A DNA stretch of 64,000 bases from Candidatus Freyarchaeum deiterrae (GCA_037305845.1 CP147778.1:2432001-2496000), one strand, 5' to 3'; shown: positions 2,236 through 64,000, counted from the first letter of the stretch. The notes: a model not told the origin generated them from the sequence alone. A program made the numbers and translations.

Positions 2236-2827
2236 TTATTCGAATTTGAGCATATAGCTTCTTCTATCTCCAAACTTTTTGTCAATATCGTCAAGTGTTC
2301 GTCTCAATGAAAAGATCTGCTGGTAAGCATTATCAAATTTACTCGATTCGAGTTCATCTTTAAGAGACTTTATTTCGCCTTGAAAAGTTTGGATATCATC
2401 TAAAATCGATGAATCGAATTCATACATTCTGTCAAGTTCTGGTTCACGAATTTTTACTGAGTCAAAAAAACCACCATAACCATAGTCAGCGTGGTTTATT
2501 CTCTCAGCGACCCTGTCTACGAGCGCCATCAATCTATCCATCTGCTCCCAAGTATTATTGACTTTATAATCCACAAGCATCTCCTGTACAAGATTAAGGT
2601 CACTTTTAGAATCACTGAACTGCTTGAACATGTAGTTCCGTAAAGCTTTATCCGCCTCTCTACGTATTTCCTTTGCCTTGTATCCATGTTGGCCGAGCAG
2701 AAGTAACTCTTACTGCTCAGTAACCAGGGATTACAAAGGCAACTTTCTCCAATAGGCTTCTGTTGGACTGTTCTCTTACTTCGCCTTTAATCTTCTCTGC
2801 TGTTGTTTTCTCTTTCTTACTAAACAT
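2236..2827 (-). CDS. Conserved hypothetical coiled-coil protein, spliced: join(complement 2720-2827, 2236-2688), 186 aa
   Basis: Exon 1 from ATG 2827 reads MFSKKEK...LLEKVAFVIPGY. Exon 2 reads HGYKAKEIRREADKALRNYMFKQ..., in frame with ORF 2236-2631. Joining gives IPGYHGYKAKEIRREADK. Co-oriented with and just upstream of the SPFH gene. Confidence 0.85.
2689..2719 (-). other. 31-nt BHB-type intron in a protein-coding gene
   Basis: Minus strand: atccct-GGTT-AC^T-gagcag-taagagttactt-ctgctc-GGCC-AA^C-atggatac. It shows a 4-bp helix, two 3-nt bulges, an inner stem and outer exon-exon pairing. It begins with an in-frame TGA. Confidence 0.85.
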
Positions 2828-2943
2828 TTTAACAACCCCATAATCGTTGCCGTACACATAAACTTCATACATCATGCTCTTAAAAAGATTTCATTACGAG
2901 CAAGAATAATAGAAATGCTCTTAAAAGATTTACTATGGATTAG

Positions 2944-4345
2944 CAAGAAAGCCCTAGTCCCTTTAGGGTGGGGGATGAATTGCGGGAGTTTAAATACCGA
3001 AAAAGGAGGAAAAAGGGGGAGTGAAAAGGGTATGCGGATAAACTGGGGTTTGAAGCCTACCCGCATCGGACTCGTTATGAATGAGGGAGAGTTGCGCATT
3101 TGAGAAGGACTAACACCTTCCGGCTGGTTCCAGCAAAGGAGCAGAAGCAGAGACTTTTCAGTTTAGCCGACAACTGCTCCAAAATGTACAACGAGATAAA
3201 CCATAAACGCAGACAATCATTCTTCTCAGGCAGATTCGACTGGAACACCGACGAACAATACCACAAATACAAGGGGTTAGTCGGCTCCGCCACCGCCCAG
3301 CAAATCACACAAAAGAACAACGAAGCCTGGAAATCATACTGGGCACTCCTAAAGAAGTGGAAAAAGGGAAAGGTGGAGAAGAAACCCAAACCTCCGAGAT
3401 ACTGGAAGGATCGCGAGACTGGAAAAAGACCCCTTAGAATCCTGGTAAGGTGCGACAGCTACCATCTGGAAGAAAAAGCCCTCAAACTCCCTTTCGGACT
3501 AAAAACGCAGTGGAGGGGCAGAAACAGGTGGAAAGGCGGTAAACAGGGCAGACTCGAAATAACCTATGACGAACTCTCGGAGAAATGGTACGCCTACATG
3601 CCAGTAGAGATCAAACCTCCTCTACACCAGCAACAGCAGCAGCTGAAAGGAAAAGAAAAGGAGGCGTACGTGGATCTGGGAGTGAAAGTCCCCATAATGG
3701 CGAGTATAGATTGGGAAGTCTTCGGCTACCGGGCGAATCCCATGCTCTCGGACTGGTGGTACTGGACACACAGAATAGCGGAACACCAGTCAATCCTGAA
3801 AGATGTAAACAATCGGTCAACCTCAAAGCTGTTAAAATCCTACCATAGGATGAGGCAGAGAAGATTCAGGAACAGTGTCAACGTGATGGTGAGGGACTTC
3901 GTTGAAAAGTGCTGGAACAGGGGAGTCTCGGAGATAGTCTGCGGAGATTTGAGAGACATAAGAAGCAGCGCCAACTTCTCAAGGAGAAGCAACTCCATGA
4001 TTCACAACTTCTGGTCGGTAGGATACATAGTAAGGAGGATAGAAGAAGTAGCAGAGGAGTACGGGATAAAAATAACTAGAGTTGATGAGAAAGGAACATC
4101 ATCAGAATGTCCGAGGTGCGGCTCAAAAAGAATCGTTAGAAGCAAAAGAATGTTCAGGTGCCGGGACTGCGGACTGGAAGCACACCGAGACGCCGTAGGC
4201 TGCGTAAACATAGGGCTTGCTCACCAACAAAAAGAAAAAGAAAAGGATGCGGAAGCCGTTAACAGGGCGGTGACACGCCCCACACTTCTAACAATAACTG
4301 CAGAAGTGTATAACTCCCTACCTTTCAAGGAGGGGAGTATGTCAG
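2944..4345 (+). mobile_element. IS200/IS605-family element carrying tnpB only (IS1341-like); ends approximate
   Basis: Left subterminal hairpin CAAGAAAGCCCTAGTCCCTTTAGGGTGGGG (2944-2973). Right hairpin AACTCCCTACCTTTCAAGGAGGGGAGT followed by ATGTCAG (to 4345). No tnpA in the element. Confidence 0.7.
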
Positions 4346-4356
4346 TAATCAGGTAA
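3100..4356 (+). CDS. tnpB: RNA-guided endonuclease TnpB
   Basis: N-terminal 'RTNTFRLVP...YNEIN' helix region, RuvC-I 'AYVDLG', zinc finger 'TSSECPRC...FRCRDCG', RuvC-III 'AHRDAVGCVNI'. Confidence 0.92.
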   Translation: MRRTNTFRLVPAKEQKQRLFSLADNCSKMYNEINHKRRQSFFSGRFDWNTDEQYHKYKGLVGSATAQQITQKNNEAWKSYWALLKKWKKGKVEKKPKPPRYWKDRETGKRPLRILVRCDSYHLEEKALKLPFGLKTQWRGRNRWKGGKQGRLEITYDELSEKWYAYMPVEIKPPLHQQQQQLKGKEKEAYVDLGVKVPIMASIDWEVFGYRANPMLSDWWYWTHRIAEHQSILKDVNNRSTSKLLKSYHRMRQRRFRNSVNVMVRDFVEKCWNRGVSEIVCGDLRDIRSSANFSRRSNSMIHNFWSVGYIVRRIEEVAEEYGIKITRVDEKGTSSECPRCGSKRIVRSKRMFRCRDCGLEAHRDAVGCVNIGLAHQQKEKEKDAEAVNRAVTRPTLLTITAEVYNSLPFKEGSMSVIR

Positions 4357-4611
4357 ACCCCACACTTAAATCTTCAAAATTAACATGAATTAACAGAAAT
4401 TTCCTATTGTACAAAAAAAACAAAATTAGGGAGATTAACTTTTTTTATAACTTCCCTATAAATTATAAATATTGTAATTAGAACAGGAAAAGTATTCCTT
4501 TGTGTAGGGAAATATTCAATAGTTTATACCCTATCTGTTAAAAAGGTAATTAAAAAGTTACAAGGGAGAACAAAGCACATGTTTTAATTCTGTGGCTTGG
4601 AGGTTATTTGA

Positions 4612-5748
4612 ATGATGGAGCAAATGGAACGAAAGGGGAAGAAATTAAAACCTCCCCCTAAGGGCAGATTAATAGTTTCCAATATGTCTGGTGTTGAACT
4701 ACTAATTGCGTTTGAAGTTTTATCCAAAATGCGAGACCAAGGTAAGATCACTGATACGTTAATATTTGTTTCCCATAGTAAAGAATCATTAAGTTTGGGA
4801 AAATACGAAGACCTAGATGATATTCATTATAAGGCGGTGAAAAGAGACGGGGTGCTGGTAGGGCGAAGGGAGAGTGGGGCTGGCACTTACTATGCACCTA
4901 AAGGCCAAATCGCGGCTGTCCTAGTGACAACCACGGATGTGTTTCCAAACTTGGACGAAGCTGAGAGGATTTGGGCTGAAGAAATCATTCTTGAACTCTT
5001 CATAAGGGTGGGTGTTCTGGATGCTTATTACGATCATCCGGGTGATATTAAAAAGGAAGAAAAGAAGTTGGGTGGGAGCACCTCAATGATTTCGGGAAGA
5101 GGAATTACGGTGGGAGCGTTCATTAACCGGCTTACACCCAACGTCAAGTTTTTCACAGAATATCTCGTATATCCTGAGGAAAAGCTCAAGGACGAAATAC
5201 TGCGCGACGTAACCATGTACGCGGGCAGTATGGAAGAAGATGCACCCCAAACGCCAAGCGAGGATGAATTAAAGAAACTCCTACTAGGTATTGTGAACCA
5301 AAAATTGGGCATGGATTTTGAACCCGGGGATTTCACTAAAGAAGAAAAAGAAATGATAGCTAAAGACTTCAAAAAACTTACCTCGGAAGACTCGGTAACC
5401 AGCATCTCTAAGAGCAGATGGTATGCCAAGCTACCACATGACTGGAACGCGGCGACTTTCAGTTACAAAGCAGAAAGAATAGTAACTGCAAGCGTAGCAA
5501 TCGACAAAAGTAAAAAAATCAAAGATGTTCTTATAACAGGTGACTTTTTACTCTCACCCCCAAACGATTTAGAAAAAGTAACAAACGCACTGAAAGAAAT
5601 ATCAGCAGAAAACAAAAAAGCCATAACCAACTCAATAGTTGAAGCTTTTCAAAATAACAGCACAGACTATTCAGGCTTTACTATCGAGGAATTCGTTAAA
5701 ACGGTAACAGAAGCGGCAAACCTCGCCTTAGAACAATCATCAAAATAA
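4612..5748 (+). CDS. Lipoate-protein ligase A family protein (divergent)
   Basis: 'GRRESGAGTYY', 'GDI..EEKKLGG' and C-terminal 'DVLITGDFLLSP' domain, paralleling the ligase at 24684. Confidence 0.8.
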   Translation: MMEQMERKGKKLKPPPKGRLIVSNMSGVELLIAFEVLSKMRDQGKITDTLIFVSHSKESLSLGKYEDLDDIHYKAVKRDGVLVGRRESGAGTYYAPKGQIAAVLVTTTDVFPNLDEAERIWAEEIILELFIRVGVLDAYYDHPGDIKKEEKKLGGSTSMISGRGITVGAFINRLTPNVKFFTEYLVYPEEKLKDEILRDVTMYAGSMEEDAPQTPSEDELKKLLLGIVNQKLGMDFEPGDFTKEEKEMIAKDFKKLTSEDSVTSISKSRWYAKLPHDWNAATFSYKAERIVTASVAIDKSKKIKDVLITGDFLLSPPNDLEKVTNALKEISAENKKAITNSIVEAFQNNSTDYSGFTIEEFVKTVTEAANLALEQSSK

Positions 5749-6049
5749 CAACACAAAATCAATTTCAATTTTACGGAAGGGACCCATCAACCCATACGCA
5801 GAAGGGCTCTTCAAATTAAGTTTTCATAACCCAAAGAAAAATGTTGAAAGACTAACATTACAAAGCTTGGTTTAAATATTAACATAAAAAACAACTCTCA
5901 AAAAAAAACAGATTTTTAGGTAATTAAAAAAAGAGGGGAAATTTTTGTATGATTTATTGGTTTTTTGAAGTACAGGTAGTTTTGGAATCGCCTCAGTAAT
6001 AGGCAACTTTTTCAAGACATTAGCAGTCAGGTCATTATGTCAAGCGGCT

Positions 6050-6322
6050 TTATCTGTTCATAATTAGATTAAATAAAACTAGTATTGCTCCGATAGCTAC
6101 GAGAAGTATTGCAACCATTATCAATGCGCTTCCAGTAACTGCAGTATACAGCATAAAGAATCCTATAGTTTCGCTAAAGACAAGCCAAATGAGAAAAGCG
6201 TTATTAGCAGCACCTGTTAATCCAGTCCAAGCAAAGAAAATTACTATAACCGCTATTATGAGAACAATAAAGGCAATCCATGAAAGCATAGTAGAAGTAC
6301 TCATACCTTTACGTTTAGGCAC
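6050..6322 (-). CDS. Small membrane protein (3 TM)
   Basis: Hydrophobic 90-aa ORF with GTG start after AGGAGGAG. Confidence 0.7.
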   Translation of the reverse strand: MPKRKGMSTSTMLSWIAFIVLIIAVIVIFFAWTGLTGAANNAFLIWLVFSETIGFFMLYTAVTGSALIMVAILLVAIGAILVLFNLIMNR

Positions 6323-6632
6323 GCCATTCTCCTCCTAATCTCCTGTTTATGAATGTTTTATTATAAGAAACTTATATTAAAATTTTACTTTGGGTTTGTA
6401 GTACATTAAGAAAGCTGTGGAAATTCATAAAAGGGGTTTTTTGAGCTTATCCCGTTCCATTCCTTTACTGGAGTCTTTTCAGCTATTAAAAATCGCTCGC
6501 AAAATACAAGTTTATAAGACTAACATTTCTGAGAATGAAAACATACAACTATTCACAAAAACCATTAGCGAAATTTAAATGCCTATACACTATTATAATT
6601 TCAATTAAACTGAAGATTAAAGGTGAACTCTG

Positions 6633-7265
6633 ATGGAGATTATGAATCAAATAGCAATGATTCCCGGGCAATCCTGGGCTTCAAACGTTTACGTGGTGGG
6701 CAAAGAAGATTTAGCACTAATTGATTCGGGTTTAAATGGTGATTTTGAAAGCTACATTATTCCACAAATTAAATCCCTGGGTCTTCAACCAAACAGAATT
6801 AATAAACTCGTAATCACCCATTTCCACCCTGACCACATAGGCGGCGCCCCCGAAGTCGTCAACTTCTGCGCACCCCAGATAATGGTTCACGAAATAGAAG
6901 CCCAATACATTGAGGAAAGAATGGGCCTTGAAGTTCAGGTTAAGCTTAAAGATGGAGATGTGATACAACTGGGAAACATGAATTTTCAAGTCATACATAC
7001 CCCTGGGCATTCCCCGGGAGCAATATGCTTGTACAATTCTGAAAACAAGGTGCTTTTCTCGGGAGACACCGTCTTTTCTTATGGAATAGGACGCACAGAT
7101 ATATCAGGCGGCGATACCAGTACCCTTAAAAAATCCATAAAAAAATTAACGGAATTAGATGTACAGATACTCTTACCGGGTCACGATGTTCCAGTTCTTG
7201 GAAACGCAAACGAAAACATAAAGATAGACTACTCATTTATTGAATCCATGATAGATGAGGAGTAA
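6633..7265 (+). CDS. Metallo-beta-lactamase fold hydrolase (glyoxalase II-like)
   Basis: THFHPDHIGG, HTPGHSPG, FSGDT and PGH motifs. Confidence 0.9.
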   Translation: MEIMNQIAMIPGQSWASNVYVVGKEDLALIDSGLNGDFESYIIPQIKSLGLQPNRINKLVITHFHPDHIGGAPEVVNFCAPQIMVHEIEAQYIEERMGLEVQVKLKDGDVIQLGNMNFQVIHTPGHSPGAICLYNSENKVLFSGDTVFSYGIGRTDISGGDTSTLKKSIKKLTELDVQILLPGHDVPVLGNANENIKIDYSFIESMIDEE

Positions 7266-7489
7266 TAAGAGTATACTCTTTACTTCTAAGCTGAGCACCA
7301 AACAACTCATTCTACTTTACAAAATAGAGTAAACTTTTAATGGAACATAATTAGCTTATTTAAAAGCATCATCCGTTAAATTAAAATGCAAGCCAGCATA
7401 ATAACTTATCTTACAAAGTATTAAAGTGCAAATTCGAATTCGGAGTACATAAGCCTCAATGTTAACATTGAAAATAAGGTGCACTAATT

Positions 7490-8707
7490 ATGAAAAGACC
7501 ATTTGAAGAAATGTTTTCAAAAACGGCAAATAGGATTCAAGCCTCCATCATCCGTGAGCTTCTTAAATTGACCCAGAAACCAGAGATCATATCCTTCGCT
7601 GGAGGATTGCCCAATCCAGACGCTTTCCCCGTGGAGCAGATACAAGAAATCTGTCCCGATGTGATTAACAACTCAAACGCTCTCCAGTATGGAACCACTG
7701 AGGGCGTGGTGGAATTAAGGGAAGCGCTCCAAAAAAGAATGGCTACAAAAAACGTGAAATGCGAATTAGAAAATATCCAAATCACCTCCGGATCTCAACA
7801 GTCCCTGGACATCCTTGGGAGAATACTACTCGATCCAAATGATATAGTACTCACGACCTGCCCCACGTATCTGGGTGCAGTTCAGGCCTTCGGGTTCCAG
7901 GAGCCGAGATACGAACTCGTAGAGATGGACGAACACTCAGTAGTTGTAGAGGATTTAGAAGCACGCCTTGAAGATATACAAAAGAGAGGGGAAATTGAAA
8001 GACTAAAATTCTTCTACCTTACACCCACCTTCCATAATCCAGCAGGTGTAACCATACCCGAAAAACGTCGAAGAGAGATAATAGAGCTCTGCAACACTTA
8101 CGATGTGCTAGTTATAGAGGATGACCCTTACAGTGAGCTGAGATACCGGGGAAAAGATGAACCGCTGCTAAAATCATTAGACACCGAGGATCGCGTGGTC
8201 TACGTTAGCACCTTTTCCAAAATTCTTGTGCCCGGCTTCAGAACTGCTTGGATGGTCGGCCCAGTCGAACTAATTAAAAAAGTCGTGATGGCAAAACAAG
8301 CGGTAGACCTTTGCACAACCCCCTTCACTCAATACATTGCTGCAGAATATTTGAGCAGAGGATACGTGAACCAACACATTAAAAAAATCAAGGAAGTCTA
8401 CGGAAGAAAAATGCAGATAATGCTCAAATCTATGCAAGAATACTTCCCAGACGGAGCTCAGTACGCCGAACCAGACGGTGGAATGTTCGTCTGGGTGAGA
8501 TTACCCGAAGACATAAACACAATAGACCTGTTCCCCAAAGCAATTGAACAGAACGTCGCATACGTGGTAGGAACAGCATTTTACCCCAATGGAGGAGGAC
8601 TCAATACGATGCGACTGAACTTCACACATCCCTCGGATGAAAATGTCGAAGAAGGCATAAAAAGGCTGGGAAACGTCCTCCAAGAGGAGCTCGCAAAAAA
8701 CGCTTAA
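7490..8707 (+). CDS. PLP-dependent aminotransferase class I/II (LysN/Aro8 type)
   Basis: ISFAGGLP, QYGTTEG, FHNPAG, EDDPY and STFSKILVPGFR (PLP lysine). Confidence 0.92.
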   Translation: MKRPFEEMFSKTANRIQASIIRELLKLTQKPEIISFAGGLPNPDAFPVEQIQEICPDVINNSNALQYGTTEGVVELREALQKRMATKNVKCELENIQITSGSQQSLDILGRILLDPNDIVLTTCPTYLGAVQAFGFQEPRYELVEMDEHSVVVEDLEARLEDIQKRGEIERLKFFYLTPTFHNPAGVTIPEKRRREIIELCNTYDVLVIEDDPYSELRYRGKDEPLLKSLDTEDRVVYVSTFSKILVPGFRTAWMVGPVELIKKVVMAKQAVDLCTTPFTQYIAAEYLSRGYVNQHIKKIKEVYGRKMQIMLKSMQEYFPDGAQYAEPDGGMFVWVRLPEDINTIDLFPKAIEQNVAYVVGTAFYPNGGGLNTMRLNFTHPSDENVEEGIKRLGNVLQEELAKNA

Positions 8708-8902
8708 TCCTACCTTCAACTCCTGATTCAAACATCTGATACTTCAAAAATAATAAAAAAAATGAAGGGTCGGACGCCCCTTATTTTTATCCTTTATTCT
8801 AATTCACAGCCCTTACAGTTCCTAGAAATATGTTGAGGGTTCCCAACTTCCAAGAATGGTTTTTGGGTAAACTATTTATCTGCTAAGGAGGAAACTTAAG
8901 AT

Positions 8903-9433
8903 ATGTCTTTAATTTATCCAGAGCAGTTTGAAACAGTCATAAAACTGAGAGACGGGAAGGAAGCACTAGTTAGACCGTTAAAACCAACTGTCGATAAAGA
9001 AAAACTATACGAAATGTACAGCACACTATCGAAGGACACAAACTACTACCGCTTCCTAAACTATCAACCCGTCACCAGATGGATCGTGGAACAATGGAGC
9101 GATGTAAACTACGACGACAAAATGACACTACTAGCCATAATAAAAGAAAACGGGAAAGAGAGAGTAATAGCTGATTCCCGATACTACCTGGATAAAACTA
9201 CCGGCGAAGCTGAAATAGCCATAGTGGTACACGACGACTACCAAGCCAAGGGAATAGGAACAAAACTACTCGCCTACACAATCGAAGTAGCCAAAAAAAT
9301 GGGAGTAAAAAAATTATACGCCTACTTGGACCCCACAAACAAAAGAATAATCCACGTAGTTAAAACCCTCGGCTTCACCGTTAAATGGGCTAACGACATA
9401 GGCGAGTACAGAGCCGATCTACCACTGCAATAA
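8903..9433 (+). CDS. GNAT acetyltransferase (Pat-like)
   Basis: 'LRDG...VRPL', 'YYRFL', 'AEIAIVVHDDYQAKGIG'. Confidence 0.88.
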   Translation: MSLIYPEQFETVIKLRDGKEALVRPLKPTVDKEKLYEMYSTLSKDTNYYRFLNYQPVTRWIVEQWSDVNYDDKMTLLAIIKENGKERVIADSRYYLDKTTGEAEIAIVVHDDYQAKGIGTKLLAYTIEVAKKMGVKKLYAYLDPTNKRIIHVVKTLGFTVKWANDIGEYRADLPLQ

Positions 9434-9467
9434 ATAACCTCCCAAAAAGTTTGACGAGAGAATTTCA

Positions 9468-9836
9468 TCATTCGAACTCGTATTTTACGTCGGTCATAAG
9501 GTATACAACCACTATAATTCCGATTGTCAGAGGAATTATACCAACTATAATTAGAAGAAGGAATATACTACCGATTATCATAATTACTCCAAGTATCAAT
9601 GCGAGGATGCGTCCCCAATTCTTCATTCGGAACAAGCCTATAGCAGCAAAGACATACATTTCCGCCACAATAAATATAACAATAACCCCTATCTGATTAA
9701 AGATACTTTGAGGAGTAAAGTAAGATGTAAGGGCAGAATATAATACCCCCATGAATGTCCCAAGGCAACCTGCCAGCCCACCAATAATAAAGAAGACTAC
9801 AGTTAGTGCGGTGACACCACTCGGTCTATAAGACAC
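9468..9836 (-). CDS. Hypothetical membrane protein (4 TM)
   Basis: 'RPSGVTAL...GLFRMKNWGR' pattern; hydrophobic. Confidence 0.75.
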   Translation of the reverse strand: MSYRPSGVTALTVVFFIIGGLAGCLGTFMGVLYSALTSYFTPQSIFNQIGVIVIFIVAEMYVFAAIGLFRMKNWGRILALILGVIMIIGSIFLLLIIVGIIPLTIGIIVVVYLMTDVKYEFE

Positions 9837-9946
9837 ATATATCCCGCCCCATATTTTTTACTAAAAAATAAACATTAGTTTTAAATTATGTTATTTTTAA
9901 ATATTAAAACATTTGGAAAGCGGCACAATTTAGACCTTGGTTAAGG

Positions 9947-10627
9947 CTAGTCGGCTTCCTTCAGTAGCTTCTTTAACTTTTTGGAAGCGTCGTGGAGCAG
10001 GGGTTTGCCGTGCCCTGGCAACAATATATCGAAATCTAGCTTCGCTATCTTTCTCACTGATTTCCATGCTTTTTCTATATCAAGTGACATTGATTTTGCC
10101 GGGCCTTTCACGTTACCACTGCCGTCGGTTCTTAACACATCGCCCACAAAAACCGCCTTTCCCGGTTTGTATAGACATATGCTGCCCTCGGTGTGTCCCG
10201 GGCAGTGTATCACCTCTAATCCCCCTATCTTGTCTCCTTCCTTCAGGATAATGTCTGGCTTGACTTTTTGGAAGTTCATAAATTTCATAAATACTCCGAA
10301 GAATGCCCCTGCTAAGCCCTTCACTCTTTTCAGTTCTCTGTCCCCTGAAAGGCTCGGCGCATCGTCTTCATGTATGGCGACCTTTGCTCCCGTTATTCTC
10401 TTAAGCTCCGCCGCGCTTCCAGAGTGGTCGATATCAGAGTGAGTTAAAATTATTGCCTCAATTTTCAGCGAGTCTTTTCCTAGGGCTCTAATTTGGCTAG
10501 CAATCTTTTTTCCATTTCGGGTTAAGCCAGTGTCAATGACAAAACCTTTGCTACCGGCAATGTACAGATAACTGTTGGCTGCTCGTATTCCTTTAAAGCA
10601 ATAAATTCCATCTGCTATCTCCATCAC
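9947..10627 (-). CDS. Metallo-beta-lactamase fold hydrolase
   Basis: THSDIDHSG, HCPGHTEG, VGD and LPGHG motifs. Confidence 0.9.
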   Translation of the reverse strand: MMEIADGIYCFKGIRAANSYLYIAGSKGFVIDTGLTRNGKKIASQIRALGKDSLKIEAIILTHSDIDHSGSAAELKRITGAKVAIHEDDAPSLSGDRELKRVKGLAGAFFGVFMKFMNFQKVKPDIILKEGDKIGGLEVIHCPGHTEGSICLYKPGKAVFVGDVLRTDGSGNVKGPAKSMSLDIEKAWKSVRKIAKLDFDILLPGHGKPLLHDASKKLKKLLKEAD

Positions 10628-10944
10628 AATTCGCCTCTTTCCTTTTCAGCTAACTCACAACATCATCAGGAGAAAACTAATATAATATCATCTTCTAGAA
10701 GGGTGCTGCCAAAATCATTGGCAAGATTTTTTTAATAAATTTTTTGTTCTTTTTCAAGCAAGCAATTCTTTTAGTTAAATGAGTCATCACCACTTTTCAA
10801 ACTTGAACATTTTATTCGCTCACAGACACGATTTGAAATACTTTCCTCTAAATCTTTCTTGTGTTTCGTTTAATTTTCGAAATGATTTTTATATTATTTC
10901 TGCGTTGAATATTCATAAAGTTCGTAAAGCGAGGAGTGTTTGTT

Positions 10945-11907: not shown

Positions 11908-12213
11908 GAGTCCACCATTCAAGACAAGTATGTTGACCTACACTGACCAGCTCACTTATTGATAACTGATAAAGAATTACTGGTATTTCCGCCTTCGCAA
12001 TCAAAAAATTCTCAACGATTAATAAAATCCTTAAAAATTAAATAACTATAACTCTTTTATTATCAATTCATCCTCAAAATTCCCATTTCCAAGCACTTAA
12101 CTCCGCTGATGCGTTTCAAGGGGCAGAGCTTTACCAAAAGGATTTATTAATTCTGAATCCAAATAAAGGATTAAAAACATTTCATAGTCAACAGGAATGC
12201 GAGGCAACATAAA

Positions 12214-20110: not shown

Positions 20111-20120
20111 GCTCCTATTA

Positions 20121-25781: not shown

Positions 25782-25949
25782 AAAGTCAAGTTTTCTTTTT
25801 GAAAAAGAATACTCATTACTAAGAACCGTTTTTGAATTTCTGTTCAAAAATCAGACACATACAGTTCATAATTTTTTTAAATTTTGGTAATCTTTATTAT
25901 ACAGCGTTATCCTAATTGAACACTCAACCAAAAGTGGAGGTGTAAACGG

Positions 25950-27005
25950 CTGGAGAAGTATAGGTTAACTAAGGCAGTAACTCTTCATGGATGATCATGT
26001 AAACTACCTCAAACTGAACTGAATAACCTTCTAGAAAATGTCGGAGTGAGAAGAGACCCCTCAGGAAGACTAATTGGAGGAATCGGGGAAGACGCCGCCG
26101 TGGTCAAGATTCGGGATGATCTGGTACTCATAGAAACTGTTGATTACATGACCCCGAACGTTGATGATCCCTATATCCAGGGCAAGATTGCTGCGGTAAA
26201 CGTTACGAACGATGTGTATAGTGTAAATCTACTTGATTTACATGCATAAGCAATAGGCGCAACCGATGTTGTGAGCTTCTTAGCGATACTCGGAGTTCCT
26301 GAAAATATGCCTATTAAAATAGCTGAGGGAATGCTGAAGGGAATAAACGATTTACTAAGCGAACTGGGCACTACAACCATCACCGGCGGTCACACCATAA
26401 TAAATCCCTGGCCCTTAGTCGGAGGAGTGGCTTCAGGAATAGCTCATCCAGACCAGATAGTAACCCACAAGAATGCTCGACCCAACGATGTGGTGCTGCT
26501 TACTAAACCGCTGGGTACTCAGCCAGCGATGGCTTGTTATAGAGGACTCCTAGATCCCAGCGTCGCAGAGCAAATACTGGGATTAATGTCCAGAAAGGCA
26601 GCAGAAGAAATTGTTCAAAAGGGGATTGACATTATGACTAGGACAAATAAGCCGGTGGCTGAGGCGATGTCAGCTGTGAAACCTCATGCCTCTACAGATG
26701 TCACCGGATTCGGACTTCTCGGGCACTCTCGAAATTTAGCAGGTGAAAGCAAGGTTAACATTGACATTCACACAATTCCCATAATCAAAGGCACTTTGGA
26801 GCTTTCGGATCTTTTCGGATACGGACTTCAGTCTGGTGAGTCAGCGGAAACCGCGGGTGGAATGATTCTAATTGTTTCAGAAGACCAGAAGGAAAGCTTG
26901 GAATCAGAGTTGGACAAAGGTTCTGTTAATCACTACGAAATAGGTACCGTGAGGAAGGGGTCTGGAAAAGTTGATACCAGCAAGGCGGAAATACTTGAAG
27001 TTTGA
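25950..27005 (+). CDS. selD: Selenophosphate synthetase, selenoprotein, spliced: join(25950-26219, 26250-27005), 341 aa, Sec at codon 15 (TGA 25992-25994)
   Basis: From CTG 25950 (GGAGG at 25936-25940): EKYRLTKAVTLHG-U-SCKLP...GEDAAV...ETVDY...DPYIQGKIAAVNVTNDVY|AIGA...GGHT...LTKPLGT...TDVTGFGLLGH...ETAGG. The ORF track splits this into 26046-26249 and 26271-27005. Confidence 0.93.
26220..26249 (+). other. 30-nt BHB/BHL-type intron in selD
   Basis: GTGT-AT^A-gtgtaaatc-tactt-gatttacat-GCAT-AA^G. It ends in an in-frame TAA, and excision restores NDVYAIG (SelD 'SDxYAMG' motif). The outer exon helix is not well formed. Confidence 0.85.
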
Positions 27006-51495: not shown

Positions 51496-51526
51496 ACTCA
51501 CTCTCTTCTTTCCCCTCTTCTTATTT

Positions 51527-54089: not shown

Positions 54090-54195
54090 ACCTGAACAAT
54101 TCCCATCTAAACCGGAATAGTCTCTTTAATTTAGAGAACCTGCTCAACCAAAATATCTCTACATAAATAATTGATTAGCGGGTATCTCACTTTTT

Positions 54196-55590: not shown

Positions 55591-55727
55591 TACTTAAAAT
55601 AAGGCGTCGCTCAAAACTAAAAAATGTTTCTATTCCCCCAACCCAGCAAACACTAGCATAAACAAGAGAAGCAGAAAAACAGAAGCTATGATTAGCCTAA
55701 ATTCGATTTTCTAATTTAATGTTGATT

Positions 55728-56255
55728 CTATTTCGTTTTTAGGACGAATTCCCATTCACACCATAGATTCTCATCATGCTCATCCGGAGGACACACAACA
55801 CAATTCGCCTCCATCTTTGGATTAAACGCCTTTGCAAACTCTTTCAAATAAGTCCATCTAACCTCCTTGCAGGGAAATTCGCCAACCCCTTTCCTTATTC
55901 TGGCTTTTTGGGTGCGGCAACTAGTAACTCTGAACACCACTCTATCCGATTTACTCTCCCACTCCTTCTCCTCCTGGTACAAAGCCCAGCTGGTGGCTCT
56001 CAGCATCGTCGTAAATGACTCCAAATCATTATTTTTTAATCCCAAAAGCTCTTTTAAATCTCTAGCTTCCAACTTCGCCAATGTATTCCAACAGTTTCTG
56101 TCAATGTTTGTAGCAGCATCAGTACCAAAATTTTCCTCAATTCCTAGAAAATAGAAGCCATCAACTCTCCAAATGTTACCAACCTGTAACGATAGCAGGT
56201 CCACCAATTTTTGTTTTGAAAGACTCTGCAACCAGTTTCTATCCTCGCCGTTCAT
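55728..56255 (-). CDS. DUF6125-like protein (V4R/ATC-hydrolase-like)
   Basis: 'VDGFYFLGIE..FG.D.A', 'CRTQ.AR...FPCK', 'CPPDEH....CEWEF'. Confidence 0.75.
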   Translation of the reverse strand: MNGEDRNWLQSLSKQKLVDLLSLQVGNIWRVDGFYFLGIEENFGTDAATNIDRNCWNTLAKLEARDLKELLGLKNNDLESFTTMLRATSWALYQEEKEWESKSDRVVFRVTSCRTQKARIRKGVGEFPCKEVRWTYLKEFAKAFNPKMEANCVVCPPDEHDENLWCEWEFVLKTK

Positions 56256-56518
56256 TTTAATTCACCGTCACTTAGGTTACTAGTCCAGAATAAATATTTT
56301 CACATATTCAATTTCGTTTTTTTACCATGCAGTGAACTTTGTATTAAAACTTTGCAACACTTAAAAGATTACTGACCAAGATGATAACTTATATTAAATT
56401 TTCTTGAAGAAGTGCCCATTTTTGTTCCAAAACAGGTGAAAAACAATAGATAAATTTATGAGGAGTGATACAAATAATATCAAAACTGAAATAGCTATGG
56501 CGAATTACTCCTAATGGT

Positions 56519-57040
56519 TTGGGACTGGAATTGGAGGATGAATCTAGAAAACAGGTTCAAGAGTACTTGGAACTGTGTCAAAAACATATAGACGAAATGA
56601 GAAAAAAATTCGGGATCGAAATAGATTCAGCTGAATCCATAATCGAACACTCCGACAAGCAATTGGAACTCGCAGACGACATAAACACTTACCTCCAGGG
56701 AATAATAGAGTACCTAGAACTAAGAAAGAGGACAATGAACGAGTTCCTCTCCCAGCTATTCTGGATAAAACAGGCGCTCAACTCCACAAAATCCGAAGAA
56801 ATTTCCTTCTATCTACGCAACTCCCTCGAAGGACTAATAGACATGGAAACCCTACTAGACCGAGAAAACGAGCTTCTAATAAACTTTGAAAAAAGAGTTC
56901 AAACCATAAGAAACTTCCTAGACTTCGTTGAGGGAACAAAAAAAGAAATAGAAAACTACAAAAAATTCTACCCCGAACTCATAAACAAACTAGACGAAAT
57001 AATAAAAAACACTAAAGAAACCCCCCCAAAAACAACCTGA
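56519..57040 (+). CDS. Hypothetical coiled-coil protein
   Basis: 173-aa helical, E/K/L-rich ORF. Confidence 0.65.
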   Translation: MGLELEDESRKQVQEYLELCQKHIDEMRKKFGIEIDSAESIIEHSDKQLELADDINTYLQGIIEYLELRKRTMNEFLSQLFWIKQALNSTKSEEISFYLRNSLEGLIDMETLLDRENELLINFEKRVQTIRNFLDFVEGTKKEIENYKKFYPELINKLDEIIKNTKETPPKTT

Positions 57041-57095
57041 ACATATCACACAAAAAAATCCCAAACAAAATTTTCTATCCCCCTTTTTAAAAGAA

Positions 57096-57875
57096 TTATC
57101 CTATTGCTTCGTTAATTTTTTCTTTTATTTCCTTGGCAGACAATTTTGGATCTTCCGACTGATAGATTGAACGTCCTACAATAGCGTAAGTGGTTCCCGC
57201 ACGGAAAGCCTCGCCTATTTCACCCCCCTGAAAACCGATACCCGGACTAAAAATCGGAATCTTTCCACCAACGATTTCAGAAACCCTCTCAATTATCTTC
57301 GGCTGTGTAGCTCCAACCACAACCCCATCAGCCCCCCATGACTTCGACTTCTCAGCAAAAATCTCATACTGAAAACGGGTCTCACCATCCGCGTTAACCA
57401 CTTTTTGACCATATCCCTCCTCAGCGCCCGGATGAGACATGTACACCAATAGAATGACGCCCTTCCCGTAGTCCTTCGCGACGCTAAAGACAGAGTCTAA
57501 TCCGCCCTTCCACCCTACGAAAGGATTAGCGATCAGAGCATCAAAACCCGCCTCGAAAAAGTAATGCGAAGCCCACTCATTAGTATGTTCCACATCATTC
57601 AGTTTACAATCCATAATGAGAGGGAGACCATAGTGAGCCGCATCCTCAATCAACAATCTGAGATCATCAAAAAGACCGAGAGGAAGCAATAACTGAAAAT
57701 TAATCTTAACCCCCACAATATGCTCCTCAACATCACTCAGAATCCTTCGAGATTTTACCAGTAATTTTCTCTTAAAATCCTTCGCACCAACTGACGGAGA
57801 CAAATCCAACGCTAAAACCACACGACTCCCATTCTCTCTAACACGTTTTTCAAGCTTCCCACTAAAAACCGACAT
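57096..57875 (-). CDS. pyrF: Orotidine-5'-phosphate decarboxylase
   Basis: 'LALD', 'GVK', 'DCKLNDVEHT', 'SPGIGFQGG', 'IVGRSIY'. Confidence 0.93.
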   Translation of the reverse strand: MSVFSGKLEKRVRENGSRVVLALDLSPSVGAKDFKRKLLVKSRRILSDVEEHIVGVKINFQLLLPLGLFDDLRLLIEDAAHYGLPLIMDCKLNDVEHTNEWASHYFFEAGFDALIANPFVGWKGGLDSVFSVAKDYGKGVILLVYMSHPGAEEGYGQKVVNADGETRFQYEIFAEKSKSWGADGVVVGATQPKIIERVSEIVGGKIPIFSPGIGFQGGEIGEAFRAGTTYAIVGRSIYQSEDPKLSAKEIKEKINEAIG

Positions 57876-57962
57876 GAAAAGCCACCCAACAAAAGAAAAG
57901 CAAAACTAGTAAAAAAAACTATCCATCCACAAACAAATAAACGAGAAAAAATACTTCGCAGA

Positions 57963-58436
57963 TTAGATAAGTCCTAGTATTACATTAATCACTTTAGGAA
58001 TAACTGCTTTAATCTCTGGTGAAAGATCCATGTCGTACTCCTTATAATTTTTCGGCTCTACACCAACCAGCACCAACTCTGGAGGCAACTTACCCGTCTC
58101 TTTGCCAATCCTGAGAGCAGACAACAAATCCATTTCATGAAGAGAAAAAAACTTAACCACACCCTTCAACAACCTATCAATATCCACCACGTAAATTTGA
58201 CCCGGTTCACCGCCACCCAAAACAGCATCTACAATAATTACTTTATCAGCACCCTCCATAAGATTAAGAATCGAAACACCACCTGTCCCACCATCAAAAA
58301 ATTCAACATTAGGCGGCAAATTAATCTCGTTTAACTCCTCAACAATATGCACTCCCAATCCCTCATCACCAAGCAACAGGTTACCAACACCAATGATTAT
58401 CGTATGTTTTATCTTTGTTATTTTTAATACCTCCAT
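57963..58436 (-). CDS. Hydrogenase maturation protease (HyaD/HycI family)
   Basis: 'GVGNLLLGDEGLG', 'DGGTG', 'IIVDA', 'SLHE'. Confidence 0.92.
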   Translation of the reverse strand: MEVLKITKIKHTIIIGVGNLLLGDEGLGVHIVEELNEINLPPNVEFFDGGTGGVSILNLMEGADKVIIVDAVLGGGEPGQIYVVDIDRLLKGVVKFFSLHEMDLLSALRIGKETGKLPPELVLVGVEPKNYKEYDMDLSPEIKAVIPKVINVILGLI

Positions 58437-58630
58437 CCTAAAAGGATTCTCCTCCGTATTAAAAAATTATTGGAAGCACATCAATGTAAATATTTGAATC
58501 AGGGTTTATGGAAACACGGGAGGAAAACTTTCAGAAACAGCGTAGAATAAAATTCAAAGCTTATAAGAGATAATAGAGAAATTAAACGACGAGAGTTGGG
58601 TGAAAAGTTTTATGCTCCTAAAATAAGGTA

Positions 58631-58909
58631 TTGTTAGAGGGATTAACGGAGATGAAAATAACAAAGAGCTGGGACTACGCCACTGGGGAATACGTGGCAA
58701 AAATTGTTGAAGGAAAAAGAAAATCTACTGTAAGAGTCGGTAGCACGCTAGATGTGGATGTTGCTCGTGACGACGCGTTAGATCTGGATTACTCTATCGA
58801 TGACTTGGCGGTGAAGGTTAGCGGCGACAAAGAATTAGCCATCCAAGCCGCCGGAGCAAAGGGACTAAAAGCCTATTTGAACGAATATTTAGAAATGAAA
58901 AGAGATTGA
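58631..58909 (+). CDS. Small hypothetical protein (ATG at 58652 possible)
   Basis: Open frame with typical composition; no motif recognised. Confidence 0.6.
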   Translation: MLEGLTEMKITKSWDYATGEYVAKIVEGKRKSTVRVGSTLDVDVARDDALDLDYSIDDLAVKVSGDKELAIQAAGAKGLKAYLNEYLEMKRD

Positions 58910-59156
58910 GGCAACCCTATTTGCTAGTTTTAATTCGCTCCAACTTAATTCTCTGCCCTGTTAAGCATTCCTTCGACTATTAACGCCTAGCCGAACATAA
59001 CAAGGATTCCCTCTACCTAGATTGCATGAAGCCATTCTGCTGTCTAGAAATAGTGTTATTGGTGGATAGCAACTGCCGCAAACATTACCTTATTAAGCAT
59101 ATTCGATTCAATTGAATCAATACTAAAATAGGGAGTTAAGAGAGAAGTGAACTATT

Positions 59157-61487
59157 TTGAAACAAACATTTAGGATTAGGAAAGCTTCCAAAAAAGCAAT
59201 ACTACTGATAACAGTCCTACTCACAACAATAATAACAATCGCAGCAGTCACCGCAATCCAAAACCAAAACGCAAATCCACTAATCTGTCAGACTCTACTC
59301 ACAAGCACGAACTCCCACGCAAACCAACCAATAATTGTAAAAGCTGACCCAGCCTGGGAAGATGAAACCTTTACGAATACATCAACTTACAGCAACATGG
59401 AAATCATACTGAACGGAAATCTAACAATTGACACCGGAGGAATCCTAACTCTAACCAACGTCACCCTAAGGGTAAACTGCACCACCAACGGTGAACACCA
59501 AATAGAAGTTAAAAACAATGGGACGCTCTACATCAATGGATCCTCAATCATTACAGCCCTAAACACCAGCTACAGATTCCTATTCAAGGTGCAGTCCGGT
59601 TCGACGTTCCAGATGAATAACAGCGAACTACACTATTGCGGATACGAGAATACTTTCAGCAGCAATGATTGTTATGGTCTCTGGATAAACACAAACAACA
59701 CAATTATTATAAACAACACATTCACAGACGGCTTCTACGGAATCATATTATGGTATTCACAAAACAATACAATAATAAACAACACCGCCATAAACAACGA
59801 CTTAGAGGGCTTCACCCTGTGGGACAGTCAGTACAACAACCTTACTGGTAACTACGCCTCAAACAACATATTTACTGGCTTTTCATTGAGTTATAGCTCT
59901 TACAACAATCTTACCGGTAACACGGTCATAAATCCCCCCCTGTTCAATGCTGCTTCTTCAGGCTTCTACATGCAACATAGCTCTTACAACAATCTTACTG
60001 GTAACACCGTTACAAACCCCACCTGGGATGGCTTCTACCTGATCGAATGCCAGTACAACAATCTCACTGGTAACACCGTCACAAACAGCGGACGTGGCTT
60101 CGAACAGTGGAGATGCCAGTACAACACTTTTACTGGTAACAACGCCTCAAACAACGATTACGGAGGCTTCTACGTGTACAATAGCACACATAACACTTTT
60201 ACTGGTAACAACGCCTCAAACAACGGCGGCCTCGGCTTATACCTAGACCCATACTCGAATTACAATAATCTTTCTGGCAACACTGCAAGCAACAACGGCT
60301 ACTACGGCTTCTACCTGGACTCTAGCTCGAACCATAATAATCTTTCTGGCAACACTGCAAACAATAACATACTATACGGCTTCTTCCTAGACTCTAGCCC
60401 CTACAATATGCTTTTAGGTAACAACGCCACAAATAACAACTATAACTTCTACCTCTTGTCCAGCTCGAACAACACTCTTTCGGGCAACACAGCAGCCGCT
60501 CCAGAAATCTACGACATCATTCCGGTGAACATCTTCATTTTTGCGTATCCGACTACTGATACTTGGGTCAGGTATCATGGCTTGTCTGTGGATCAACCTC
60601 TGCCCAATGACTTCTGGAACCATCCAGGCTACACCATCCAACAAACTCCGATATCATTTACCTACACCACGATAAGATACTTTTCCCCAGGGAGCCACTA
60701 CGTCGAGTACGCGAGTTCTGGTTACGTGCCGGACTACGCTTGGCATGCGAGAATATATATCAATAATGTCCTGATGGCGCAAGGAGACGTTGGAAGATTA
60801 AACCACCTCATAGCCAATTTCACAGTGACCAACACCACCTACGGCTTCTGCCTAAACTCCAGCCCGTACAATAATCTTACGGGCAACACCGCAACCAACA
60901 CCACCTACGGCTTCTATTTGGAAGGGTCTTCTACTAATAATAATCTCTTAAATAACACCGCTTTAAACAGTAAAAGTGTAGGATACAACTGGACTACTAA
61001 CTGTATCAATAATGATTTTACGGGCAGTGTGGAGACGAACTACCTGCGCGTGAAAGTCACCGAAGGTCTGGGCTTTCCTATTAACGGTGCGGATGTTGAA
61101 GTTGTGACCGAAGGAACAGTTGTTTACAAGACACCACAATTTAATGGCACAGACAACAAAACTGGCTCGAACGGTGCCACTCCATGGATCGCTGTCACCT
61201 ACAGGACAGGCACGGGAATAGATACAATGACTATGAACACGACCACCGTCACAGTTTACTATCCAGGGTTCAGCGTCTTGGACAATTCGAGAACAGTGGA
61301 AATGTCATTGTCGCACATAGAAACATTCACAGTGGCTACTGAGCAACTTACACTGCTTTCCATCCTGCTGCAGGTTGGAACACAAGGCGGTGGCAGTACC
61401 CTTGTTTACGCAGCTATAAGTGTTACTACCTGTGCAGTTGTGGCAGCAGCGGTTTTGTTCTACTACTTCCGCTTCCATAGAGTATAA
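59157..61487 (+). CDS. Surface protein with NosD-like right-handed beta-helix (PbH1 repeats) and C-terminal TM anchor
   Basis: Repeated 'GF.L..S.YNNLTGNTA.NN' units; N-terminal signal; C-terminal hydrophobic helix. Confidence 0.88.
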   Translation: MKQTFRIRKASKKAILLITVLLTTIITIAAVTAIQNQNANPLICQTLLTSTNSHANQPIIVKADPAWEDETFTNTSTYSNMEIILNGNLTIDTGGILTLTNVTLRVNCTTNGEHQIEVKNNGTLYINGSSIITALNTSYRFLFKVQSGSTFQMNNSELHYCGYENTFSSNDCYGLWINTNNTIIINNTFTDGFYGIILWYSQNNTIINNTAINNDLEGFTLWDSQYNNLTGNYASNNIFTGFSLSYSSYNNLTGNTVINPPLFNAASSGFYMQHSSYNNLTGNTVTNPTWDGFYLIECQYNNLTGNTVTNSGRGFEQWRCQYNTFTGNNASNNDYGGFYVYNSTHNTFTGNNASNNGGLGLYLDPYSNYNNLSGNTASNNGYYGFYLDSSSNHNNLSGNTANNNILYGFFLDSSPYNMLLGNNATNNNYNFYLLSSSNNTLSGNTAAAPEIYDIIPVNIFIFAYPTTDTWVRYHGLSVDQPLPNDFWNHPGYTIQQTPISFTYTTIRYFSPGSHYVEYASSGYVPDYAWHARIYINNVLMAQGDVGRLNHLIANFTVTNTTYGFCLNSSPYNNLTGNTATNTTYGFYLEGSSTNNNLLNNTALNSKSVGYNWTTNCINNDFTGSVETNYLRVKVTEGLGFPINGADVEVVTEGTVVYKTPQFNGTDNKTGSNGATPWIAVTYRTGTGIDTMTMNTTTVTVYYPGFSVLDNSRTVEMSLSHIETFTVATEQLTLLSILLQVGTQGGGSTLVYAAISVTTCAVVAAAVLFYYFRFHRV

Positions 61488-61752
61488 AACGATAAGAACA
61501 CGGATTGGAAAATAATAAACCCCAAAACCAGTGATTCTGAACCTTCACCATCTACAATTTCTTTTTTTATTTAGTACCATAATAATGACACCGACAGCAG
61601 CAAAGTCAGTACGCCAAATAAAAACAATAAAAATGCTACCCTTTAATGAAATAAATTCGTTTATTCTAGAATGAGACATCACCAAATGAGTGGAGAAAAC
61701 ATTAATATGGTTTCGACAATCGGAAGAGCTATGTAAAAGGAGGAAATTTAAA

Positions 61753-62328
61753 ATGAGACTTCTGGGCATTGTTTGCAGCCCGCGCAAAGGCGGAAACACG
61801 GAAATTCTGGTTAAAGAAGCCTTGAAACCGGCTCAGGAAGCCGGTTGGGAAACCGAGTTATTTTTAATGTCAGAAAAACAGGTGGCTCCCTGTGATGCTT
61901 GTGGAGCTTGTTTCAAAACTGGCTCCTGTGTTATTAAAGACGATATGCAAGAACTGTACTCGATGCTTGAACAGGCCGACGGTGTGATAATCGGCAGCCC
62001 GGTCTACTTCGGCAATGTCAGCGCACAGGCCAAAGCGGTCATGGACAGAACCTATGCCATAGCGTTTAAACGAGCACTAAAAGACAAAGTAGCCGGCGCC
62101 ATCGTCGCTGCCAGAAGGGTGGGGGCAGCGCAAGCACGCTCCTTAATATACTCCTTCTGCATTATTCACGGAATGATAGTAGCCGCAGGAGGAATAGGAT
62201 ACGGGGGAGACCCCGGTGATGTCTTAAAGGGAGTAGGAACCATCGGCCCCTCAGCTACGGCAGAAGCACGGCAAGTAGGTATCAGAGTCATGAACCTGGC
62301 GGAACGGCTGACCAAAAGCAAGAAATAA
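61753..62328 (+). CDS. Iron-sulfur flavoprotein / flavodoxin family protein
   Basis: 'GIVCSPRKGGNT', 'CDACGACFKTGSCVIKDDM', 'GSPVYFG'. Confidence 0.9.
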   Translation: MRLLGIVCSPRKGGNTEILVKEALKPAQEAGWETELFLMSEKQVAPCDACGACFKTGSCVIKDDMQELYSMLEQADGVIIGSPVYFGNVSAQAKAVMDRTYAIAFKRALKDKVAGAIVAARRVGAAQARSLIYSFCIIHGMIVAAGGIGYGGDPGDVLKGVGTIGPSATAEARQVGIRVMNLAERLTKSKK

Positions 62329-62598
62329 ATCCATTACAACATTTAAAATGAGCAATAAAAAGGAAGATTATGCCTCAGGTTTTTATTAGTGCATAACTTC
62401 TACATTGCGTAAATCCATATTATCTCCAATTAAGGAGGGGAGGGTGGAGATTATTGTCTCTCTACCTACCATAAATATCATCCACGAACATTTAGCTACA
62501 TAAAAAAATGAAAAAAAAGGGAAAGAGAAATAAATAGCAAAAAAGTAAAGTTCACAAACCAACAATAATGTTACTCAACAAAAAAGGTGAATGTAAAA

Positions 62599-64000
62599 AT
62601 GAAGCTATTCGAACCAATCAAGATAAACACCCTCCAGCTTAAGAATCGTATCACTATGCCCGCCATGCATCTGAATTATATGCGCGTATGATTACTTTGT
62701 ACGCGTAGGTTAAGCAGATCAGGGCTATGTGACTCAGCGATTAATTGATTTTTACGCTGAACGGGCAAAGAATGAGGTAGGTTTGATTCTTGTCGGAGGA
62801 TGTTACACGGAAGTCCTTGCGAAAGGATTCGATACAATGATTAGAATAGATCAGGATGATGCTATTCCAGGTCTTTCAAAACTCACTGAAGCTATTCATG
62901 AGGGTGGTGCCAAATGTGGTGCGCAGTTATACCACTCGGGAAGATACTCGTTTTCTGCGGTGATAGGTCAGGCGTCTGTGAGTGCTTCGGCAGTACAATC
63001 GAAATTCACAGGTGAGACTCCAAGGGCTCTGACGAAGGAGGAAATTCTACAAACTGAGGAGAATTTTGGTGAGGCTGCTCTTAGAGCTAAAAAGGCGAAT
63101 TTCGATGCTGTGGAGCTTATTGCTTCGGCGGGGTACTTGATTCCGCAGTTCCTTTCGCCGCTCACTAATAAGAGGGATGATGAGTATGGTGGTGATCTTA
63201 GTGCTAGGGCGCGGTTCGGTGTTGAGTGTATTCAGGCTATTAGGGACAAGGTTGGGGATGATTATCCCTTGATTATGCGGCTTTCTGGGGATGATATGAT
63301 GCCTGGGGGTAACACTTACCGGGAAGTCAGGGAATACGCTCCTTTATTCGCGGAGGCGGGTGTGGATATGTTTAATGTTACTGGGGGTTGGCATGAGTCG
63401 ACTGTTCCTCAGATTACTATGAATGTTCCGCGGGGTACCTATGTTTGGCTGGCTGAGAATGTTAAAGAGGTTGTTGATGTGCCGGTTATGGCGTGTAACC
63501 GGATTACTGATCCTTTGATGGCGGAGCAGGTTCTTCTTGATGGTAGGGCGGATCTTGTGGGTTTGGGTCGGGGTTTGCTCTGTGACCCGGAGTGGGCTAG
63601 GAAAGCTAAGGAGGGGCGTTTCCGCGAGATTCGGCAGTGTTTGGGTTGTAATCAGGGTTGCTTTGACCATGTGTTTGCACTTCAGCCTGTGGAGTGTTTG
63701 GCGAATGCTGCTGCGAGTCGTGAGGCGGAGTATCGGATTAAGCCTGCTGCTAAGCGTAAAAAGGTACTTATTATTGGTGGCGGACCGGGTGGTATGGAGG
63801 CTGCGAGGGTTGCGAAGCTTAGGGGTCATGATGTTACTCTTTACGAGAAGACTTACACGCTGGGCGGTCAGCTGAACCTAGCCGCGGCACCACAAGACAG
63901 GCGGGAGTTCAAGAATCTGGTTGACTACCTGTCTTATCAAATGAGTTTGCTCGGTGTTAACGTGGTTTTGGGTAAGGAGGTTACTCCTGATGTTGTCAAG
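62599..64000 (+). CDS. NADH:flavin oxidoreductase (Old Yellow Enzyme / FadH-like with Fe-S and FAD domains), spliced: join(62599-62679, 62714->64000), runs off the window
   Basis: MKLFEPIKINTLQLKNRITMPAMHLNY|ADQGYVTQRLIDFYAERAK...QLYHSGRY...GYLIPQFLSPLTNKRDDEYGG...CLGCNQGC...IIGGGPGG. Missing from the ORF track. Confidence 0.9.
62680..62713 (+). other. 34-nt BHB-type intron in the OYE/FadH-like gene
   Basis: atctg-AATT-AT^A-tgcgcgta-tgattactttg-tacgcgta-GGTT-AA^G-cagat: a complete helix-bulge-helix-bulge-helix. In-frame TGA inside. Confidence 0.9.

Follow-up and report, generated by a model that had tools for sequence, protein, structure and literature searches.

The window analysed here is a 64,000-nucleotide stretch of the genome of Candidatus Freyarchaeum deiterrae (GCA_037305845.1, CP147778.1), covering positions 2,432,001-2,496,000 of a single contig of 3,576,204 bp (3.58 Mb; this genome is labelled G000), in which three protein-coding genes are each interrupted by a short insert with the bulge-helix-bulge (BHB) geometry of tRNA introns. 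The three are a small gene without a Pfam family (gene 1), selD and the gene of an OYE/FadH-type reductase; their coordinates are counted from the first letter of the window. A preliminary description of this DNA had assigned a common splice-site signature to the inserts, and its elements are seen in the sequence as claimed: every insert lies in phase 0 after a TAY codon and ends in AA, every central helix holds two G-U pairs, one of which adjoins the 5' bulge, and the distances to the start codons are 81, 108 and 270 nt, the last resting on an inferred CTG start.

Gene 1 is encoded on the minus strand. Its first exon (2720..2827) comprises 36 codons (MFSKKEK...FVIPGY) from the ATG at 2827, and its second exon (2236..2688), which begins with HGYKAKEIRREAD..., comprises 150 codons and a stop. 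The BHB intron between them (intron 1, 31 nt, 2689-2719) is inserted in phase 0 after TAC, 108 nt downstream of the start, and reads ...CCU GGU UAC|U GAGCAG-12 nt-CUGCUC GGCC AA|C AUG. Its central helix pairs GGUU of exon 1 (2725-2722) with GGCC of the intron (2694-2691), two of the pairs being G-U, between the 3-nt bulges AC|U on the 5' side (A, C at 2721-2720) and AA|C on the 3' side (AA at 2690-2689); the outer helix is interrupted. Using tblastn we found the N-terminus of gene 1 fused in frame in intron-less orthologues, and in four members of the same genus the gene is uninterrupted and joined exactly as ...PGY-HGYKAKE. An insert of 27-31 nt is present at the identical point in one further genome of the genus (G002) and in four genomes of the same order, whose copies read GGCUAU|A...GGCUAA|C; it is absent from four of the five same-genus relatives, and no insert is visible in two distant relatives. 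Across the six genomes that carry the intron, four stem pairs have changed on both sides and are still paired. Four of the six genus members have thus undergone a precise loss of intron 1, for which slippage between flanking repeats could be responsible. No Pfam family matched gene 1, a small gene, yet of the 30 relatives searched 19 have it conserved.

The selD gene, on the plus strand, is split into exon 1 (25950..26219) and exon 2 (26250..27005) by a 30-nt BHB intron (intron 2, 26220-26249) that reads ...GAU GUG UAU|A, 9-bp stem, GCAU AA|G CAA and is placed in phase 0 after TAT, 270 nt from the start at 25950. GUGU (26214-26217) and GCAU (26244-26247) make up the central helix, in which two pairs are G-U, and the bulges are AU|A (5', with A, U at 26218-26219) and AA|G (3', with AA at 26248-26249); no outer helix adjoins the motif, which therefore has the relaxed HBh' form. 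The Pfam AIRS profile runs contiguously over the junction, with positions 1-48 on exon 1 and 49-111 on exon 2, where AIRS_C follows. At the search threshold selD gave one match per genome in the relatives searched, and nine of these carry a 30-34-nt insert at the identical point, with none in G021; across the 10 genomes with the intron, six of the nine stem pairs have changed on both sides with pairing retained. The 5' end of the gene is unusual in other respects. From the stop at 25944-25946 to the in-frame TGA at 25992-25994 (HG-U-SCK) there is no in-frame ATG, GTG or TTG, and GGAGGTG precedes the CTG at 25950. The TGA is a selenocysteine (Sec) codon and the CTG a probable start, so that expression of selD would need an unusual start, Sec recoding and splicing.

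The reductase gene, also on the plus strand, has a first exon of 27 codons (62599..62679, ATG at 62599) and a second exon (62714..64000) that matches Oxidored_FMN profile positions 29-339 and continues beyond the window end. Its BHB intron (intron 3, 34 nt, 62680-62713) lies in phase 0 after TAT, 81 nt from the ATG, and reads ...AAU UAU|A, 8-11-bp stem, GGUU AA|G CAGAU. The central helix AAUU/GGUU (62674-62677 and 62708-62711) contains two G-U pairs, the bulges are AU|A (5', with A, U at 62678-62679) and AA|G (3', with AA at 62712-62713), and the outer helix is perfect over 5 bp (AUCUG at 62669-62673, CAGAU at 62715-62719). All nine orthologues examined, five from the genus and four from the order, lack the intron and read MPAMHLGY-ADQGY through the predicted junction, which makes it a gain on the G000 line. 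DNA contigs of four runs from two independent studies contain the intron unchanged, and no intron-less form of the site was found among the contigs examined. Compared with its orthologues, the G000 exon has AAU for GGN, CUG for CUU and GCA for GCG, and each of these changes strengthens helix pairing. The first of them replaces a Gly (GGN) that is invariant in the nine orthologues by Asn (AAU, 62674-62676) and turns two central-helix G-U pairs into A-U pairs; the coding sequence appears to be adapted to its own intron.

Each of the three inserts has a 4-bp central helix that includes G-U pairs, 3-nt bulges and an inner stem of 6-11 bp, and excision between bulge bases 2 and 3 restores a sequence with which orthologue junctions and Pfam coordinates agree exactly. 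The stems of the selD and gene 1 introns covary among relatives, with loops free to vary and with bulges and central helix retained; intron 3 was found in no relative. The genome encodes two EndA paralogues and rtcB, the latter itself interrupted by an intron, and the inserts would presumably be removed from mRNAs by the archaeal splicing endonuclease and RtcB ligase. The genes with a tRNA-intron endonuclease domain are located at 1921033-1921278 (L083) and 1733162-1733422 (L084), in open frames of 213 and 205 aa, and having two such genes suggests that the enzyme is hetero-oligomeric and of the broad-specificity kind. To the extent that DNA can show it, the three inserts are confirmed as tRNA-type BHB introns. 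In favour of their being instead broken genes, programmed frameshifts, translational bypass sites or assembly errors, the minimum-energy folds of RNAfold omit the weak central helices and the z-scores for the three introns are only -2.6, -0.75 and -2.5, but such accounts are extremely improbable in view of inserts kept at the same site in 6-10 genomes, of compensatory stem changes that preserve the BHB geometry while loops vary, of a housekeeping gene such as selD with its single match per genome, of identical DNA in two independent studies, and of lengths (30, 31 and 34 nt) without one common frame effect. Group I and group II introns were considered and excluded, as the inserts measure only 30-34 nt and the window has no Rfam match; no tRNA gene was detected in it either.

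The whole genome was scanned for BHB geometry without any base preference, requiring that removal of the candidate join two coding frames. Comparison with shifted controls identified most scan matches as noise: scans for structure and frame joining without strong thresholds gave no excess over these controls, an excess was confined to short, strong candidates and consisted almost entirely of ones ending in AA. Using conserved motifs as leads, we curated a set of 17 mRNA BHB introns in 16 genes, which is incomplete and biased to canonical geometry. The 14 introns outside the window interrupt cbf5, pcm, nadE, porA, gatE, rtcB, a Tyr/Trp-tRNA synthetase gene (aaRS), alba, an aconitase-family gene (acn), ppsA, moaE, a 4Fe-4S protein gene and, twice, SAHH. 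Exact junctions were confirmed for 13 of the 17 by comparison with relatives, and Pfam supports those in cbf5, selD, gatE, the aconitase-family gene, the 4Fe-4S protein and the reductase. An A/AA filter yielded the moaE and hdr-like introns and one of the two in SAHH (SAHH-1), while those of rtcB and aaRS came from an AA-filtered list; these five were excluded from the bulge statistics, which are based on the 12 introns found without a base filter, with background frequencies from 16,863 BHB-like decoys.

The bulges of this set show a strong base preference. The 3' AA end is found in 10 of the 12 introns against a background of 0.098 (P = 4e-9), the first base of the 5' bulge is A in all 12 (background 0.29, P = 4e-7), and the first intron base is A in 10 (background 0.29, P = 1.5e-4); for the three window introns alone, three AA ends out of three would arise by chance with a probability of about 1e-3. 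Opposite the 5' bulge, the intron has G or C in 15 of all 17 cases (background 0.45, P = 3e-4), so that an exon U at this point meets G and gives the U-G pair next to the bulge; this pair is kept in all 16 copies of the selD and gene 1 introns. When candidates were 'spliced' and submitted to ARAGORN, which recovered few tRNA introns and makes this a small comparison, the AA end occurred in five of the six tRNA introns judged plausible among signature-blind matches; one further intron, in a tRNA T-loop and taken from the A/AA-filtered list, ends in AA as well. The enrichment of AA and of the first A, together with the AA ends of tRNA introns, implicates the splicing enzymes. In crystal structures of the endonuclease a pi-cation sandwich clamps the first adenine of the bulge, the third adenine is stacked against the catalytic His (PMC12397907), and cleavage falls between bulge bases 2 and 3 (PMC2738675). 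Bulges that are A-led and A-rich (5' A-N|A, 3' A-A|N) characterise the BHB introns of mRNAs and tRNAs throughout this genome and most likely reflect the grip of the endonuclease on the bulged bases. Bulge positions inside the intron, being free to change, would mostly have drifted to A, while the first base of the 5' bulge, a fixed exon position, would limit where introns can persist.

The proposal of the preliminary description that a sequence preference exists beyond BHB geometry can therefore be retained for the AA end and the A-led bulge and has to be given up for the Tyr codon, phase 0 and the G-U pairs. In the larger set, with tRNA introns compared, AA ends are enriched and TAY upstream of the junction is not enriched outside the window. 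Phase 0 after Tyr occurs in none of the 14 introns outside the window, the nearest case being nadE, whose intron splits a Tyr codon as T|AC; the 17 introns are distributed over the phases as 8, 8 and 1 (chi-square P = 0.056), with phase 0 in 5 of the 14. Two G-U pairs are likewise found in none of those 14, giving 3 of 17 overall (background 0.13, no enrichment). The splicing system does not prescribe a Tyr codon, phase 0 or two G-U pairs. The position near the 5' end fared better: of the 16 introns that could be placed, about 12 fall within the first third of the gene, and the bias looks real, a tentative result in that the scan filters required a 3' exon longer than the 5' exon and so favoured 5' sites. 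A loop word shared by the three window introns, UACUU, was examined as a family mark and put down to chance, as among the selD introns only the G000 copy has it and the genome is not enriched in it.

The features that are particular to the window introns may be traces of how these introns arose. In all three, the exon tetramer and the intron 3' tetramer that form the central helix are the same word apart from transitions (4/4 tetramer positions), and the resemblance can be followed through the last six bases, which are GGUUAC, GUGUAU and, ancestrally for the reductase, GGNUAY in the exons, and GGCCAA, GCAUAA and GGUUAA in the introns. Compared as direct repeats, these flanks are identical at three of seven positions in the window introns; at SAHH-1 the count is seven of seven. 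This 56-nt intron (1877011-1877066, L038), present in G000 only among 12 genomes, is flanked by perfect CCGGAAU repeats and has inverted ends of 9 bp, and BHB cutting removes the insert together with one repeat. The second SAHH intron (29 nt, 1876899-1876927, L038) is common to the genus and one same-order genome. Over the whole set, the 5' tetramer can pair with itself in 7 of 17 introns (background 0.13, P = 0.004) and both tetramers follow one purine/pyrimidine pattern in 7 of 17 (background 0.19, P = 0.03), both groups including the three window introns. The three youngest gains, which are polymorphic among close relatives with an exact empty site, all belong to the self-pairing class; they are the reductase intron and SAHH-1, each confined to G000, and the nadE intron, found in G000 and G002, in which both wobbles have already been converted.

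These observations lead us to an explanation in two layers, in which A-rich bulges driven by the enzyme are combined with a similarity of exon and intron words born from duplication, and to which we assign a probability of about 0.6. That the introns discussed here originated by duplication is, on the sequence comparisons, somewhat less probable than its opposite, and the following general model for BHB introns in protein genes of Asgard archaea is put forward tentatively. Such introns would be born at the DNA level, when a small hairpin is inserted with a 6-7-nt target-site duplication. To form a central helix, the duplicated tetramer would have to be self-pairing, by Watson-Crick or G-U pairs; G/U-rich tetramers would manage this through wobbles, and a self-pairing tetramer followed by A as fifth base would make a cleavable BHB at once. 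Later transitions would turn some wobbles into Watson-Crick pairs, the bulges would drift to AA, and intron and exon would co-evolve, even at the cost of an invariant Gly changing to Asn; slippage between the repeats would finally delete an intron precisely. Under this model the Tyr codon (UAY) follows from a tetramer-closing U and the A-led bulge behind it, and the two G-U pairs follow from a duplicated G/U-rich tetramer pairing with its own copy.

Several points weigh against the explanation as a whole or its second layer. Splicing itself is predicted from DNA, and AA is a preference only, since the introns of pcm, acn and porA end in UA, UG, GA, AC, AG or AU in their orthologues. The duplication layer is based on small numbers, its symmetry test reaching only P = 0.03, and the age trend (three of three young introns against 4 of 10 older ones in the self-pairing class) does not reach significance. 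In 10 of the 17 introns the tetramers cannot pair with themselves, among them porA (AUCC/GGAU) and rtcB (CCCG/CGGG), both genus-level gains; introns of this kind cannot have begun as simple duplications and must have come by a second route. Searches of the genome for further copies of the 17 introns or of their stem arms gave chance matches only, so no active element family is visible. Finally, the conservation of the U-G pair in 16 of 16 selD and gene 1 copies suggests selection and not a decaying relic. The reality of the introns and the enzyme-preference layer are rated much higher than the duplication.

A simpler account would accept the enzymatic origin of the A-rich bulges and regard the Tyr codon, phase 0, the G-U pairs and the word similarity as post hoc chance in a sample of three. 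The 14 other introns, which lack the phase-0 Tyr and two-G-U features, agree with it, as does the missing overall enrichment of two or more G-U pairs (3/17 against 0.13); given A at position -2, Tyr has only a P of about 0.03, the hypothesis was drawn from the same three cases, and the shared loop word proved to be chance. We nevertheless consider coincidence unlikely, though the strongest competitor, because all three window exon tetramers are self-pairing (0.13 each, about 0.002 jointly), because that class is enriched genome-wide (P = 0.004) and includes the three youngest gains, and because a pristine 7-nt duplication, at SAHH-1, falls within it. The spreading mechanism raised in the preliminary description, in which excised and possibly circular introns are re-ligated into mRNA at UAY sites resembling anticodon loops and copied back into DNA, is very unlikely. 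It could explain by a cDNA route why intron 1 was precisely lost in four same-genus genomes, and tRNA introns of Thermoproteales are described as transposing between sites, with 26 recurrent families cited in the preprint 10.64898/2026.10.13.758758, but the same preprint gives copying or reverse transcription no support for Asgard tRNA introns, and slippage between flanking direct repeats explains the precise loss equally well. No sequence is common to any pair of the 17 introns, their sites are unlike anticodon loops beyond the single A, and SAHH-1 carries a target duplication of the DNA type. The combination of enzymatic bulge preference and duplication remains our preferred explanation. Dissecting the signature distinguishes what the machinery demands, A-led bulges with G or C facing the 5' bulge, from traces of origin. 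If the duplication layer is correct, intron gain and precise loss become testable by comparative counts in the closest archaeal relatives of eukaryotes, and the reductase, with its Gly-to-Asn change, would be a case of coding sequence yielding to the demands of RNA splicing.

All 17 curated introns are located between 1.12 and 2.64 Mb of the genome; the tRNA genes that ARAGORN or Rfam recognised, 14 in number, occupy the part from 1.11 to 1.85 Mb. The majority of the introns fall within the most conserved motifs of housekeeping enzymes, and recognition may be biased to such motifs. The rtcB intron (1452796-1452824, L041) lies inside the LPDAHxGYG motif of the gene for the ligase expected to seal these introns; it occurs in all six genus members and is absent from four same-order and two more distant relatives, one same-order genome being unmatched. 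The cbf5 intron (32 nt, 1483415-1483446, minus strand; L035:1501-1532) interrupts the catalytic Asp codon (G|AU of GHSGTL-D-PKV) and was found in 11 of 11 same-order genomes examined and not in G012; an exact copy of its first 17 bases, 17 nt long, is present at 1700971-1700987.

In the literature searched, archaeal splicing within coding sequences is documented essentially for cbf5 only, and the window adds three well-supported mRNA introns to these cases. The BHB intron of cbf5 pre-mRNA is known from Desulfurococcales and Sulfolobales (PMC2738675), and the introns described here resemble it in being short and inside the coding sequence, in the cut between bulge bases 2 and 3 and the often relaxed motif, as well as in the link to a hetero-oligomeric endonuclease and in gain and loss among relatives. 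The cbf5 intron of G000 has the same place and phase as the crenarchaeal one (PMC2738675). The two systems differ in extent and in proof: here at least 17 introns in 16 genes are found in an Asgard archaeon and known from DNA, whereas cbf5 splicing is proven by cDNA. The A-N-A bulges of the substrates crystallized with the endonuclease (AFU 2GJW, ARMAN-2 9W2K; PMC12397907) match our A-N|A and A-A|N consensus; those substrates were designed, and a natural base preference of this organism's enzyme is predicted.

Heavily interrupted tRNA genes of Freyarchaeia and Atabeyarchaeia are similar in their BHB sites and repeated gain, according to two reports (PMC11291895; 10.64898/2026.10.13.758758), whose lineage is most likely that of the genome studied here. 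Agreement with the wetland Freyarchaeia genome of the first report extends to the wetland source of the sequencing runs that match this organism, the Sec machinery and tRNA genes mostly invisible to standard tools, 14 having been found here. Within the searched passages of either source, introns in protein-coding sequences are not mentioned, and the preprint reports no general route by which Asgard tRNA introns arrive and calls their arrival an open problem (10.64898/2026.10.13.758758). The target-duplication pattern seen here, as opposed to the tRNA introns of Asgard archaea, is found at mRNA sites.

The introner elements of eukaryotic algae and fungi are DNA transposons that occur in multi-copy families and whose target duplication supplies a splice site. 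The idea is alike, in that insertion with target duplication makes a removable intron at once; introners are spliceosomal and multi-copy, in contrast to the 17 introns of this genome, each of which is present as a single copy. By this analogy the duplication route might be an archaeal counterpart of eukaryotic introners, with the Tyr codon and the two G-U pairs as its fingerprint, a parallel that we regard as possible and as somewhat less likely than not.

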